Shown piece by piece: positions 4,566-37,689 of a DNA stretch of 64,000 nt (its first letter is position 1; each line of letters opens with the position of its first letter). Source of the stretch: a virus. Lineage: Duplodnaviria; Caudoviricetes. The DNA lies in the IMG/VR virus record IMGVR_UViG_3300043414_000372, positions 1 to 64,000 of that record; one strand, given 5' to 3'. Under the pieces are notes generated by a model. That model did not search any database. It saw only the letters and a list, made by a program, of their open reading frames with translations, and was not told the DNA's origin. A program made the translations under genes and the position numbers.

Positions 4566-4630
4566 CTCCTATGTTATTATAGCATAGGACGCAGAATTTA
4601 TCAACCGGGATGATGTCCTGTAGACCGGCT
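4566..4630 (-). promoter_or_regulatory. Candidate structured leader (hairpin + pseudoknot vs SD-sequestering stem) of queD
   Basis: AGCCGG/CCGGUU stem with 16-nt loop; loop AGGAC is complementary to downstream GUCCU, which alternatively forms UCCUAUG/CAUAGGA over the SD. Confidence 0.45.
4576..4604 (-). promoter_or_regulatory. Sigma70-type promoter of queD
   Basis: Minus strand TTGATA-N17-TATAAT with extended -10 TG; AGGAG SD follows. Confidence 0.7.
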
Positions 4631-13815: not shown

Positions 13816-16521
13816 TTAACCGAATGTGAATAAGTCATCAAATGTTGAGTTAACATCAGTATTACTTCTGATATCCCAATCTAATACGCCAAGTAAGTTG
13901 TCAATCTTTTCATCTACTAAGGTTGATTCCATTAATAAATCATCAAACGGTAATTCCTTGAACCATTGTGGTAAACGTAATTCATCAACTGGGTATGCAA
14001 TACTAGTGAAGCCCAATGCGTTATCTTTGAGTTTACAAACAACAATTTTCATACCATCTATAATCTTCTGGCTATAGTTATCACCATACACTCTGCGTAG
14101 ATAGTTCCAGTTAATTGCTGCACGGGCATGACCCACACCACACTTACCAGTCTTTTCAAATTCAATAGTATGCTTAGTTAAGTTATTAACACTCTTTGGG
14201 CTACCCTTTGTCCAACTATCTTGTTCAGACAGGTTAGTTTTGAATTCTTTAACCATTTCAATAACTTTATCACGTTGCTCACCAGCAAGGACCTTAGTAA
14301 GTACATCCATTAAGAATTCTTGTATATACTTAGGAGTATCAGCACGTTTCAAGTCAAGACCCATTGCTTTGATATCACCATTTTTTCCGTTTACATCTTT
14401 ACGCTTACCCTCTTTATCAAAGATATTAATAGCATAGCGTTTCTTTGTGATAAAGATAGCACGATCACCAATCAATTCACGACCAGCTTTAATGATTTCA
14501 CCATTCTTTCTTGGAGCATGAAATGCACGTTCCATAAATGCAGGAAAACTTTCATTAGCTTGGTCAGCAATACCGTCATACAATGTGATGCAGTTTTCTT
14601 TATCCCATTTAATATCACCATTCGCTATTTGCGAATTGAGAATAGGATAAGCAGTAAAGTAACATGAGTCAGTATCACCATATACAATCGCAGGACCTTC
14701 ATGGTTATAATCACCAGTAACTGTTTCATTGATGGTACTCATCATATGTTTAACAATCTGACGACCACTTAATGTAACACTTTGACCGATACGTTTGTCA
14801 TAGAATCTGCAATGTTCATTCAATAGTGCGCCATACGCTGAGTTCAACAAAATCTTACGAACAAGCTGACGCTTATCCCAGTATTCACGATCCTCATTCG
14901 TAGTAGATTCTTTAAGTTTCTTCTGCATTACTTTACGATCACTATACCAACGTGAGAGTAATCCAGGAACTACGCCCTCTTTCTCATAAGTAAAGATTGT
15001 ACCATTAGCAGAAAGCATCCATGGACGATTGCTATCAAAGATCATCTTCCAGATTTCAGCAGCACTATATTCCTCACTACGACCATCTTCGTAATCTATA
15101 GTAAGAATTGTGCCACGTTCTTGGTTCATAATTGATGTGTATTCTAATACACCAAACAAGTTCTCCCATAGAATAGCACCAGTAACGTCATCGTCACCTT
15201 CTTTGAAACGCTTTTTAAGGCTAGCAAGTTGCTTACCTTTGTCAAGCATATACTTGTCAGTTAATGTTTGCCTGACTTGACCGACGATGGTTTCTCCTGC
15301 CATGTTAAGGGCACGAATAACCGAGGGATAGAGCGAGTTGATGTCAACTGCTCCAACGTATTCGTGCATACCTCTTTTCGGCGTAGCAACGAAGGCACCT
15401 GCTGCCGGTTGTGTTTCTTCCGCATTCTCATTCCTTCTCTTTTTATCTGGCACTACTAATCCACGTTCGTGGGCTTCATTAAAAATCGCCATCTCAATCA
15501 TTGCTACAGAACCCATGACTGTTGGAAGCAGTACAGTGTTCTCATGCGCTAATTGATTGGCAAGTTCTAAAAACTTTAGTTTGTTGTGAATCTTCACTAA
15601 CAACATGGTATCTTGGCGATTGTATTCAATAAACTTTTTAAAGTCTTTGTTATACAACTGATCCAGAGTACCTTCATATTGAGTTTTGTTCTCGCCTACT
15701 TCCATCTCACCAATAGCATCTAACTTATATGAATGTCGTGATTCATAGTTATATTTCTTGTAGAGTTGTAAGTAGTCCAAGTGAATACGACCTACTAAGT
15801 CGTATGTAGTTTCACTTTTGCCAAATCTTTCGTATTCCCTAGCCTTAGGAAGTTGACCCATCAAGCAAAACTTGCGTGTGTCATCCTTACTCATTACTCG
15901 TGTGACACGATTAACCATGTAAGGTATGTCGTATCCTTCACTGTTCCAGCCAGTCATTACATCAGCATCTTCAATGAGTTGAAAGAAAACATCAAACATA
16001 TCCTTCTCATTAGTGAAAAGCATACAGTTTTCAAATTCATTACAAATTTCTTGTGCTGTCTCTGGACTCATGTGCTTAGGGGCAATGACCAATGTAACCA
16101 ATGTATCTTGCCAATCTAAATACAATGAGATAGCAGTTACTGGGTTGAATGGATCAGTTGTAGGACTGAACCCCTTCTCAGGATCAAAGTCTACCTCAAT
16201 GTCAAAGAAACAAGTATGAAGTTTAGGAACATCTGCCTTAAGATAATTTTCACTAAGGCAGCGAAACACTACTGGCACATCGCTTTCAAATAATTTCTTA
16301 CCTGAATGGATGCGTCTTTCTTTTTCAAACTCTTGTCGTTTGCGTGTACTGAAACGATTTACAGGGTCACCATATATACTGCGATACTTGCCCTTATGAT
16401 CGGGATAGTAGAGTACATAGTTTGTGGGATATTCTTTGTATTGACGCTTTCCGTTCTGGTCCCGTTCTACAACGTAGATACGATCCTCATCCCTGCTATG
16501 AATAGCATCAACGTAACTCAA
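13816..16521 (-). CDS. Family B DNA polymerase (T4 gp43-like)
   Basis: Exo FDIE; DINSLYPS, KILLNSAYG, YGDTDS, KKRY motifs; uninterrupted 901 aa. Confidence 0.97.
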   Translation of the reverse strand: MSYVDAIHSRDEDRIYVVERDQNGKRQYKEYPTNYVLYYPDHKGKYRSIYGDPVNRFSTRKRQEFEKERRIHSGKKLFESDVPVVFRCLSENYLKADVPKLHTCFFDIEVDFDPEKGFSPTTDPFNPVTAISLYLDWQDTLVTLVIAPKHMSPETAQEICNEFENCMLFTNEKDMFDVFFQLIEDADVMTGWNSEGYDIPYMVNRVTRVMSKDDTRKFCLMGQLPKAREYERFGKSETTYDLVGRIHLDYLQLYKKYNYESRHSYKLDAIGEMEVGENKTQYEGTLDQLYNKDFKKFIEYNRQDTMLLVKIHNKLKFLELANQLAHENTVLLPTVMGSVAMIEMAIFNEAHERGLVVPDKKRRNENAEETQPAAGAFVATPKRGMHEYVGAVDINSLYPSVIRALNMAGETIVGQVRQTLTDKYMLDKGKQLASLKKRFKEGDDDVTGAILWENLFGVLEYTSIMNQERGTILTIDYEDGRSEEYSAAEIWKMIFDSNRPWMLSANGTIFTYEKEGVVPGLLSRWYSDRKVMQKKLKESTTNEDREYWDKRQLVRKILLNSAYGALLNEHCRFYDKRIGQSVTLSGRQIVKHMMSTINETVTGDYNHEGPAIVYGDTDSCYFTAYPILNSQIANGDIKWDKENCITLYDGIADQANESFPAFMERAFHAPRKNGEIIKAGRELIGDRAIFITKKRYAINIFDKEGKRKDVNGKNGDIKAMGLDLKRADTPKYIQEFLMDVLTKVLAGEQRDKVIEMVKEFKTNLSEQDSWTKGSPKSVNNLTKHTIEFEKTGKCGVGHARAAINWNYLRRVYGDNYSQKIIDGMKIVVCKLKDNALGFTSIAYPVDELRLPQWFKELPFDDLLMESTLVDEKIDNLLGVLDWDIRSNTDVNSTFDDLFTFG

Positions 16522-34880: not shown

Positions 34881-35148
34881 ATTTCTTCTGAATTTCGCTT
34901 TCAGTATTATTCTTTATTAATTGGTCTATCAATGTTGGATATACTCGTCGGTAATATTCAATCATTTTATCCCAATCACTATCTACTACCTTCCCCTCAA
35001 CTACGCATTTGTCAATGTTCTTTTTATTAAAATCTAAAATGACATTGCACGTTTGAATGTCAGAGTTCCGTACTTTTTTGCTAATACTAACTTGTTCATC
35101 AATCTGTCCATTGGGTTTACGAACAAAAGTAATCAATAAATATCTCAC
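34879..35148 (-). CDS. Hypothetical protein
   Basis: ATGA-coupled to the clamp loader. Confidence 0.7.
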   Translation of the reverse strand: MRYLLITFVRKPNGQIDEQVSISKKVRNSDIQTCNVILDFNKKNIDKCVVEGKVVDSDWDKMIEYYRRVYPTLIDQLIKNNTESEIQKK

Positions 35149-36071
35149 GATGTTAACTCCACTAATGTTGCTGCTAGACTAATCTCAGGGATTCCAACTA
35201 ATGGCAAGTTTGCTAATCCATTACGAATGACAATGATACTAGCATCACGTTTTTCTTGTTGCTTGCCCCATAAGTCTAAGTTGTCATACATCCACTTATA
35301 AGTATCTTCAATACGTGTTGGGTACAACGCAATGTATTGCATCAGTTGCTGGCGTCCCTCAAGAATCTTGCCAGCTTTAAACAATGTTGTTGCTTCTAAC
35401 AACAATTCATGTTCACTGTTACCTTCTGATTGTGGGGGCAATAGTTTTCCTGTGCTGCTATTGACTTGTAGTTGATTCAAGCATTTACGCAAGTCTGGAT
35501 ATGCTACACGAACATAGCTGTCTAATGTATCCAAGTCAAACTCAATACCCTCAGTTACAAGAACAGTTGCTGCCCTTGCTGTATATTCTGTGCGATCAGG
35601 CTTAGCGATATGAAATTTGTGGCAACGACTTTCACGCAATGCTGGAATGATTTTGTGTTCATAGTTACAAGTAAGAATGAACCTTACTGTATCAGCATAT
35701 GCTTCCATATCGTTACGCAATGCTGCTTGAAACTCTGGACTTGTATAGTCAGCCTCGTCAAGTAAAATCACTTTAAACTTACCGAACGGCATTGTTTGTG
35801 CGAATCCATTAATCTTATCACGCACAACTGCTACACCATTCTCGCGGCTCGCATTGATTTCTAATACATCATAATCTTCTACACCAAGTTCATTAATTAA
35901 AACTTTAGCAAGAGTAGTCTTACCAGTACCCGGGTCGCCACTTAGTAATAGATGTGGGATAGAGCCATTGGCTATCCAACCTTCTACTTGTTGTTTTTGT
36001 CGTTCATCTACAAAGACATAATCTGTTACAGATTTCGGACGATACAACTCAACCCATAATTTATTTTTCAT
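35145..36071 (-). CDS. Clamp loader AAA+ subunit (gp44/RFC-like)
   Basis: WVELYRP, GDPGTGKT, EINAS, LDEAD, CNY, ESRC, PDLRKCLN. Confidence 0.93.
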   Translation of the reverse strand: MKNKLWVELYRPKSVTDYVFVDERQKQQVEGWIANGSIPHLLLSGDPGTGKTTLAKVLINELGVEDYDVLEINASRENGVAVVRDKINGFAQTMPFGKFKVILLDEADYTSPEFQAALRNDMEAYADTVRFILTCNYEHKIIPALRESRCHKFHIAKPDRTEYTARAATVLVTEGIEFDLDTLDSYVRVAYPDLRKCLNQLQVNSSTGKLLPPQSEGNSEHELLLEATTLFKAGKILEGRQQLMQYIALYPTRIEDTYKWMYDNLDLWGKQQEKRDASIIVIRNGLANLPLVGIPEISLAATLVELTS

Positions 36072-36373: not shown

Positions 36374-36754
36374 TTAATATACCTTATCACTCCAAGTTTC
36401 GTCTTTTAATTTCTCGTCAGATATAAGTAAAATATCTGCCGGATCCACTCTGCGAATAGTCTTTGGTCCTTCTTCATCTTCGATATCTATACCACGAGTC
36501 CAACGACCATGACTAATCATAATCCATTTACCAATCTGATATTCTGGGTCTGTGTTAGTAGAACCGATAGCATAAATCTTCCCCCAACGAGGGCGAATAC
36601 CTGCGCTTTTCATATCGTCATTGGGTAATAGAATACCGCTGCTGAGAATTCTAACATCAAAATCCATATCACACACTATGATATGGGCGCCGATTGGCTT
36701 GAATTGGCTCTTGTTAAAACGATGTGGTTCGAATGCTAATTTCTTTTCTTCCAT
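36374..36754 (-). CDS. groES: GroES-like co-chaperonin
   Basis: FKPIGAHIIV, SSGILLP, G.I.AIG, IGKWI; start re-set to MEEKK. Confidence 0.75.
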   Translation of the reverse strand: MEEKKLAFEPHRFNKSQFKPIGAHIIVCDMDFDVRILSSGILLPNDDMKSAGIRPRWGKIYAIGSTNTDPEYQIGKWIMISHGRWTRGIDIEDEEGPKTIRRVDPADILLISDEKLKDETWSDKVY

Positions 36755-36755
36755 A

Positions 36756-37133
36756 TTACTTCTTCTTTGTTGATTTTTTAATTTCTTCTTCTTTGATTTT
36801 TTCAATTTCTAAATCATCTTCAAATGATTCTTCTAATTCTAATTCTTCAGGAAGAAGTTCTGCTACGTCAATCTTTGCTGGTTTGGTAGCATCAGGTTGT
36901 AATTTTTGCTGAGATTTTTTAGTTACTTGTGCGGAACGATTACCTACTGTTTTGGTATAAGCGTTATTTACTTTGTCTGTTACTGGTTTTACGACTCTAC
37001 CAAATGCATCAATTGTGTCTCCGCGGGCGTTAAGATTCTTAACATTCCCCACTGCTCGTGTTTTTTCATTTTTTTGAATCATGGCGCCCATGTCCACGCT
37101 TTTACCCATTGCTGATCTGTATATACTTGCCAT
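36756..37133 (-). CDS. Hypothetical protein
   Basis: ORF with GGAG SD. Confidence 0.7.
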   Translation of the reverse strand: MASIYRSAMGKSVDMGAMIQKNEKTRAVGNVKNLNARGDTIDAFGRVVKPVTDKVNNAYTKTVGNRSAQVTKKSQQKLQPDATKPAKIDVAELLPEELELEESFEDDLEIEKIKEEEIKKSTKKK

Positions 37134-37144
37134 TTTTAATCTCC

Positions 37145-37654
37145 TTATTTTAAGAATTCGTCTACCGATAATTGATAGTACAAACTATTTATACGATGAA
37201 TCCCGATCAAATACAATACATAACTAGCTACACTACTGCCACGACCTACACCCCATACTATGTTATTTCTACGCATTGTATCCACAAGATACTTTAGATA
37301 CTTCAATAATGGGAACATATTCCTATCATGGAATTTTAATAGTTCATCCCCTGCACGTTGCAATTCTTCTTCGTTTTTACATTGATCCAATACCCATTTA
37401 GCAATGTCAATTTCGTAGTATTCTTGGGGCATTTGCCATTGTGATTGATTTAGTTCATCAAATTCTTCTAGTGATAGTTTGGTATCAACATATTCTACTA
37501 GTGTGGGTAGATTTTCATCTGAGAGAAAGATACTATCCAAATTGATTTGTTTATCTACGAAACATCCTTTGATAGTGCGTATAGGATCACGCATATACAA
37601 GTCACAGAGGTCATTTTCTGTGAGGATAATTTGTCCGTAATTGTCAGTTTTCAT
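37145..37654 (-). CDS. Stand-alone fragment of DNA polymerase III alpha (DnaE) ending before the catalytic DxD
   Basis: R...EL...VWGVGRGSSVASYVLYLIGIHRIN..Y.L...EFLK aligns by eye to DnaE VGPGRGSGAGSLVAYAL..T..DP...L.FERFL. Confidence 0.78.
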   Translation of the reverse strand: MKTDNYGQIILTENDLCDLYMRDPIRTIKGCFVDKQINLDSIFLSDENLPTLVEYVDTKLSLEEFDELNQSQWQMPQEYYEIDIAKWVLDQCKNEEELQRAGDELLKFHDRNMFPLLKYLKYLVDTMRRNNIVWGVGRGSSVASYVLYLIGIHRINSLYYQLSVDEFLK

Positions 37655-37689
37655 CTATGTATTATAACATAGACTTTTGTGTAAATCAA
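37654..37689 (-). promoter_or_regulatory. Sigma70-type promoter with dyad around the -10 box
   Basis: TTGATT-N17-TATAAT; TCTATGT-TATAAT-ACATAGA; ATG 6 nt after the -10 box. Confidence 0.75.

Follow-up and report, generated by a model that had tools for sequence, protein, structure and literature searches.

A probable N-terminal unit of a split minimal DNA polymerase III alpha in an uncultured phage

Results and Discussion

Genes and features of the locus

The DNA under study belongs to a 229,851-bp record of an uncultured phage with a CheckV completeness of 61%; in the following, the window denotes the whole stretch of 64,000 nucleotides that was analyzed. Within positions 37145-37689 of this window only one open reading frame was found (hereafter the N-unit, Table 1), which ends with ...GVGRGSSVASYVLYLIGIHRINSLYYQLSVDEFLK-TAA, i.e. 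with the residues EFLK. The remaining 35 nt (37655-37689) are intergenic and carry a promoter-like site. Downstream of the N-unit a small ORF, a gp31/GroES-like gene and a gp44-type clamp-loader gene follow on the same strand, and this order was also observed for the complete relatives MIJ3, 121Q and SCTP-2. The clamp-loader gene lies ~1-1.5 kb downstream of the N-unit, and its matches to Gp44_lid and DNA_pol3_delta2 were below their cut-offs. A family B DNA polymerase (PolB), taken to be the phage's main replicase, is present in the own record as well as in MIJ3, 121Q and SCTP-2. These results corroborate the first-pass annotation of the locus, which had described a stand-alone DnaE fragment in a PolB phage, equipped with its own strong (here: predicted) promoter and located upstream of groES and the clamp loader.

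Table 1 Features of the N-unit and C-unit regions (positions refer to the window unless G000:C1 or L017 is given).
Feature	Position	Strand	Remarks
N-unit of split minimal Pol III alpha (probable)	37145..37654	minus	169 aa; ORF list, Pfam, PHROG, profile, AF2 model
Sigma-70-type promoter-like site TTGATT-17-(TG)TATAAT	37661..37689	minus	10/12 consensus matches, upstream TG; predicted function
Next gene downstream of the N-unit	36756..37133	minus	125 aa; weak phrog_14844 match
gp31/GroES-like co-chaperonin	36374..36805	minus	phrog_931, E 8.5e-11
AAA+ clamp-loader large subunit, T4 gp44 type	35145..36071	minus	PF00004, E 1.5e-16
Family B DNA polymerase, matched part	14233..15504	minus	PF00136, E 5.5e-35; 903-aa open frame
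C-unit of split minimal Pol III alpha (probable)	G000:C1:90570-91181	minus	203 aa, GTG start; phrog_11778 'DNA polymerase', E 2.4e-55
phrog_11637 ORF	L017 4247-4627	plus	~120 aa, motif WWW[EQ]SNR; 121Q gene 17, PA5oct EST35_0221; PHROG
Rv2179c-like DEDDh 3'-5' exonuclease	L017 5179-5739 = G000:C1:91178-91738	minus	186 aa; PF16473, E 4e-34

The promoter-like site scored best within the 4.5 kb that were scanned. Its position and hexamers are kept in 28 of 28 IMG/VR relatives (L188-L215), in which the -10 box (TATAAT, TACAAT, TAGAAT and similar, usually with an upstream TG, and with a TTGnnn box 17 nt upstream) ends exactly 6 nt ahead of the ATG; the spacer between the -35 and -10 boxes varies among them. 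A Shine-Dalgarno sequence upstream of the N-unit was found neither in the own genome nor in the 28 relatives. With the -10 box 6 nt from the ATG and no Shine-Dalgarno sequence, the N-unit mRNA is predicted to be leaderless or nearly so, and it looks like a conserved early transcript of this kind. The GGAG Shine-Dalgarno sequence of the downstream 125-aa gene starts directly past the N-unit TAA in the own genome and in nearly all of the 28 relatives, and because of this abutment the gene is probably co-transcribed with the N-unit.

Family, structure and conservation of the N-unit

The N-unit matched the Pfam family PF07733 (DNA_pol3_alpha) at profile positions 16-94 of 260 with an E-value of 1.6e-8 and 35 bits (cut-off 23.9), and phrog_11127 'DNA polymerase' was matched over the full length (E 1.3e-39). 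A profile derived from 77 diverse N-unit homologs aligned without gaps to residues 320-392 of E. coli alpha (E 7.6e-5). Thereby, the GVGRGS sequence of the N-unit is placed on E. coli G359-S364 (R138-G139-S140 on R362-G363-S364) and the terminal EFL on residues 390-392 (F167-L168 on F391-L392). In the structure alignment the N-unit ends at the position of E. coli residue 393, eight residues short of D401; the catalytic aspartates, D401 and D403 in the published E. coli numbering, lie 8-10 residues past its end. The earlier observation that the ORF stops at EFLK just before the PDxDxD motif, without catalytic aspartates, is therefore borne out by a profile alignment that ends at residue 392. 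A further PF07733 match was found neither in the window nor in the whole 229,851-bp record by a Pfam six-frame search, and no DnaE-like sequence was detected in any frame after the N-unit stop.

The AF2 model of the N-unit, built on the alignment of the 77 homologs, reached a pLDDT of 93. Its residues ~70-169 align to E. coli alpha 278-393 (Z 9.8-11.3), M. tuberculosis (Mtb) DnaE1 306-413, Taq alpha 296-455 and PolC 825-965. This model was compared with 48,161 representative PDB chains without dependence on Foldseek, and VIA-align was also applied to the C-unit model described below; Foldseek E-values were weak for both models (0.005-0.05) because of the very long targets, whereas VIA-align separated the matches clearly. 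For the N-unit, only C-family polymerases stood out (Z 8.0-12.5), with the next unrelated chain at Z 3.3. The best match was Mtb DnaE1 (Z 12.5, rmsd 1.9 A, 93 residues aligned), accompanied by PolC (Z 8.3-11.7), E. coli alpha (Z 9.8-10.2) and Taq alpha (Z 8.0). The aligned part starts just past the end of the PHP domain of the cellular enzymes and corresponds to the N-terminal palm subdomain, which is mostly helical. In the model, residues 1-70 make up a small, confidently folded alpha/beta region consisting of three short strands and two helices, for which neither language-model look-alikes nor a wide structure search gave a usable match in DnaE or elsewhere. This region could be a docking module.

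Nine residues (R100, E104, G135, G137, R138, G139, S140, S144 and L147) are invariant in the 77-sequence alignment, and all 77 homologs end with ...EF[LFM][KR], with no more than a few residues left to the stop. A word-index search yielded at least 8000 relatives, nearly all of them 169 aa long. When 1.84 billion cluster representatives were searched exhaustively with HMMER, 1021 clusters at 50% identity reached E <= 0.001; the best 150 of them were 95-222 aa long, and nearly all of these matched up to their own C-terminus. Pairwise dN/dS values (NG86) for 21 distinct IMG/VR DNA relatives ranged from 0.03 to 0.23 with a median of 0.089, and the stop codon is located at the identical place in all 21. 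These values show strong purifying selection on the N-unit, for which alone dN/dS was measured. In L097, what looked like an in-frame stop turned out to be merely the natural gene end.

The C-unit, a separately encoded partner half

Pfam six-frame searches for PF07733 and PF17657 in four genomes (the own 229,851-bp record and the complete relatives MIJ3, 121Q and SCTP-2) had suggested that no second half exists. This reading was overturned by the discovery of the C-unit, which is too divergent for Pfam. A 13-bit match to the finger domain in 121Q pointed to an ORF of 212 aa that starts with ...TDIDIDF, and the C-unit of the own genome was then located by a motif scan and phmmer (E 5e-33 to the 121Q ORF). 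The search for an ORF starting near PDIDID, proposed with the first-pass annotation, thus ended at a 203-aa protein whose gene lies 53 kb from the N-unit and outside the window. Its sequence reads M-R-I-D-S-DIDIDF...KLDLL...IRPGK...KKAHAIAY, with five residues preceding DIDIDF. In 34 diverse sequences D6, D8, D10, H37, G40, K69, D71, R139, P140, K142, H171 and Y175 are invariant; D8, D10 and D71 are the metal-binding aspartates, and RPGK and K-x-H-A-x-x-Y are the finger motifs. Four C-unit sequences from phage records were left out of the structure prediction. The catalytic Asp triad and GRGS are therefore not on one chain here, the Asp residues being located on a separate protein.

The C-unit motifs are collinear with SMPDIDIDF, ALYRPG and FNKSHAAGY of Mtb DnaE1. 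The sequence match itself was weak (E 0.02 with the 34-sequence profile), and a 12-sequence C-unit profile gave no match to PDB sequences. Because of the weak sequence match, the putative assignment of the C-unit to DnaE rests on the predicted structure and short motifs. The AF2 model (pLDDT 89) aligned along nearly its entire length, and to C-family polymerases alone: PolC 968-1308 (Z 10.1), Taq 459-847 (9.2), Mtb 416-818 (8.8) and E. coli 397-790 (7.8). The values for the C-family covered Z 6.1-10.1, and the next unrelated chain was found at 3.6.

Compared to the cellular enzyme the C-unit is trimmed, since its 203 aa cover E. coli 397-790 with ~192 residues aligned. The distance between D10 and D71 is 61 residues, compared to 152 (D403-D555) in E. 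coli, from which we conclude that the thumb is absent. About 100 further finger residues are absent as well, and altogether ~200 palm and finger residues of the E. coli protein are without counterpart. Neither unit aligns past residue 790 of E. coli alpha; consequently, both lack the clamp-binding, OB and tau-binding regions. Neither a PHP domain (PF02811) nor a Pfam finger domain (PF17657) was found in the own record (61% complete) or in MIJ3, 121Q and SCTP-2.

Fit and co-occurrence of the two halves

In the model alignments the last position covered by the N-unit is E. coli 393, Taq 455, Mtb 413 or PolC 965, and the C-unit takes over three to four residues later, at E. coli 397, Taq 459, Mtb 416 or PolC 968. 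The break is located in a short loop, which leads from the last palm helix to the strand bearing the first two catalytic aspartates, and nothing is lost or added. As the halves abut without extra residues, there is no split intein, and any assembly of N-unit and C-unit must therefore be non-covalent. This agrees with the initial statement that neither a remainder nor an intein is visible in the window.

Searching 50,697 phage records by tblastn, the N-unit was detected in 95 and the C-unit in 96 records with near-identical genus tallies (N-unit/C-unit: Escherichia 34/34, Pseudomonas 11/11, Klebsiella 10/11). In addition, 14 genomes were inspected, namely the own genome, MIJ3, 121Q, SCTP-2, PA5oct, Atu_ph07, RsoM2USA, RAS14, Slickus01 and five IMG/VR contigs (250-525 kb); all 14 contain exactly one N-unit and one C-unit, 4-182 kb apart.

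Both halves were also observed in the Alishewanella phage Slickus01 (OQ508957.1; L102/L106/L112), whose genome is circular and comprises 141,644 bp. The split mini Pol III is therefore not restricted to phages >200 kb.

Among the close relatives of the N-unit longer than 296 aa (six proteins) no fusion of N-unit and C-unit was found. Instead, the fusion partner is a neighbouring gene or a fragment of a ribonucleotide reductase; each of the six is represented by one contig and five of them by single sequences. In two metagenome proteins, P0391 and P0392, the reading frame continues from the N-unit into the downstream 125-aa neighbour; in P0393 an upstream 201-aa neighbour is fused to the N-unit, and in P0394 the N-unit is followed by the C-terminal part of a ribonucleotide reductase. 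Since each of these four long forms is a single sequence from a single contig, they may be artefacts of assembly or gene calling.

Interpretation and proposed mechanism

We consider it very likely that the N-unit forms the N-terminal part of a minimal nucleotidyltransferase of the C family (DnaE-like), which is encoded by two genes and is typical of group 2.2 jumbo phages. Complementary parts of one DnaE-type active site are divided between two conserved genes that occur together, with the nucleotide-binding motif on the N-unit and the metal-binding aspartates and finger motifs on the C-unit, and each gene is embedded in a replisome gene cluster (clamp loader and primase-helicase, respectively). 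Of the two options offered in the first-pass annotation, half of a naturally split C-family polymerase or a decoy, the former is supported by the DIDIDF ORF, the abutting boundaries and the one-to-one occurrence in 14/14 genomes. Assembly in trans, DNA-templated polymerase activity and a biological role of the split pair are what we infer for this system.

In DnaE, the helix-turn with the GRGS motif holds the triphosphate of the incoming nucleotide. The N-unit would provide this element as part of the helical half of the palm, and the C-unit would contribute the beta-sheet with D8, D10 and D71 plus a cut-down finger region with RPGK and K-x-H-A-x-x-Y. Most likely, both proteins dock non-covalently on the surface that is intramolecular in DnaE, which would result in a ~43-kDa heterodimer with one complete active site. 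This heterodimer would probably serve as a thumbless, accessory second polymerase beside PolB, and short primer extension, gap filling or repair may be its jobs. As the DnaE finger motifs are kept and the genes are located among replication genes, DNA-templated synthesis supplementing PolB is most likely the reaction of the heterodimer. Template-directed, processive synthesis is not assured, because the thumb is absent and ~200 palm and finger residues are without counterpart; the missing thumb and clamp-binding parts argue against a processive replicase and leave room for a non-polymerase transferase.

Such a transferase would also use one joint active site, then specialised for untemplated addition, a nucleotide signal or the nucleotidylation of proteins or DNA ends. 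The reduced fingers and the sparse alignment over the E. coli 397-790 range, the OB fold and PHP domain that were not found, the full PolB that the phage already possesses and the catalytic versatility of the Pol-beta fold are all in its favour. However, the invariant RPG and KxHAxAY motifs are located near the template and the incoming dNTP in DnaE, the closest structural matches are exclusively C-family replicases, and the genes reside in primase-helicase and clamp-loader clusters, so that we regard this specialisation as unlikely. Less probable is a solo, non-catalytic role of the N-unit, directed either at the host Pol III (as its decoy or inhibitor) or at the phage replisome (as an adaptor), with the co-occurrence of the C-unit reflecting shared ancestry. 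The predicted own promoter, the distance to the C-unit and the extra ~70-aa N-terminal region would fit this idea, and co-occurrence alone is weak evidence of interaction, as related phages have many genes in common. A mere decoy, on the other hand, would not need a GRGS motif that is invariant in 77 diverse sequences, nor would it explain a boundary exactly complementary to the C-unit. Partner subunits of DnaE are reported to bind to the PHP domain, the clamp-binding motif and the C-terminal tail. All of these regions lie outside the E. coli 278-393 stretch that is aligned to N-unit residues 70-169, and the catalytic residues are encoded by the C-unit; the dominant-negative or decoy role considered in the first-pass annotation is therefore not favoured.

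The same annotation had named a frameshift or sequencing error interrupting a contiguous dnaE and a decaying pseudogene as readings that would undo the split-gene interpretation. Nothing more than the truncated look of the PF07733 match speaks for either of them. Against decay stand the low dN/dS values (median 0.09), and both length and stop are shared by thousands of metagenome proteins as well as by 95 phage records. The continuation of the protein is encoded 53 kb away and not adjacent to the stop, directly past which the Shine-Dalgarno sequence of the next gene begins. Pseudogene and frameshift explanations are thus excluded, with a negligible residual chance.

Returning to the split polymerase, the separation of the genes might itself be functional: with the halves in separate replisome clusters and under separate promoters, and with the N-unit on its conserved, presumably leaderless transcript of early type, active enzyme would only arise when and where both are made. 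The mini Pol III could then be a hand-off polymerase, which extends primase products before PolB takes over (cf. Pol alpha), or one that copes with modified DNA of the phage. We rate this extension of the model as quite unlikely.

Relation to known systems

In analogy to bacterial DnaE and PolC, the phage proteins exhibit the palm fold, GRGS, DxD, a third Asp, RPG and KSHAxAY with structural Z values of 6.1-12.5. The cellular enzymes are single chains of ~1100-1400 aa, which comprise PHP, thumb, full fingers, clamp-binding, OB and tau-binding parts, whereas the phage version consists of two chains (169 + 203 aa) without thumb and without a PHP or Pfam finger-domain match. The split DnaE of cyanobacteria (DnaE-n/DnaE-c) is likewise a C-family polymerase from two distant genes. 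In this case, however, DnaE is broken elsewhere and the halves are ligated by protein trans-splicing, whereas the phage halves abut at E. coli 393|397 and carry no intein.

The system has already been described. Iyer, Anantharaman, Krishnan, Burroughs and Aravind (2021; Viruses 13:63; PMC7824862) predicted computationally a split minimal Pol III alpha in group 2.2 jumbo phages and thus reached the same split-polymerase reading independently; active assembly of the two units is a prediction in that work, too. As in their description, distant genes encode an N-terminal unit for NTP binding and a C-terminal unit that binds Mg and the template, PolB is present alongside, and other Pol III domains were not found (the own record is 61% complete; three complete relatives agree). 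Nothing essential differs: the copy described here is one more example, from an uncultured phage, and its lineage adds a 4-nt-overlapping Rv2179c-type exonuclease gene. Furthermore, both PHROGs (11127, 11778) and recent GenBank/RefSeq records already label the halves 'DNA polymerase', and Weinheimer and Aylward (2022; PMC9123017) list PF07733 as the marker of the marine jumbo-phage group PGC_A. The PA5oct omics paper does not mention the N-unit and C-unit genes, and a biochemical or structural test of a split Pol III alpha heterodimer was not found in the full-text literature searched. The present analysis adds a fit of the boundaries at residue level, values for selection, the absence of fused forms in very large databases and the conserved promoter geometry.

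If it works, the pair would be a two-chain C-family polymerase of ~370 aa, far smaller than DnaE/PolC, and would reveal the minimal active core of the bacterial replicase; Iyer et al. (2021; PMC7824862) argue that the minimal Pol III alpha models an ancestral form. Each half has thousands of metagenome relatives, and, if the interpretation is true, two unrelated DNA polymerases are at work together in a very large, widespread clade of giant phages.

Surroundings of the C-unit gene

In the own genome, PA5oct and 121Q a convergent phrog_11637 ORF comes next to the C-unit, then a gene for a structural protein, the primase and finally the helicase, and a similar layout was observed in Atu_ph07 and Slickus01. 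The phrog_11637 ORF converges on the 3' end of the C-unit and slightly overlaps it in all five genomes.

On the other side, the end of the exonuclease gene overlaps the GTG start of the C-unit by 4 nt (GTGA), which suggests translational coupling of the two genes. The adjoining exonuclease was considered as a proofreader and rejected, as no such neighbour is located upstream in PA5oct, Atu_ph07, RAS14, Slickus01, RsoM2USA and 121Q. The pairing of exonuclease and C-unit is lineage-specific and stands outside the conserved system.

The tail of the C-unit (L017 ~4574-4615, minus strand) has a low confidence in the own-genome model and is not conserved in 121Q, Atu_ph07 and RsoM2USA. In the own lineage and in PA5oct it terminates with short aromatic motifs (...TAFTSTFS, ...DPFKLFS) and is reminiscent of the clamp-binding tails of T4-type polymerases.
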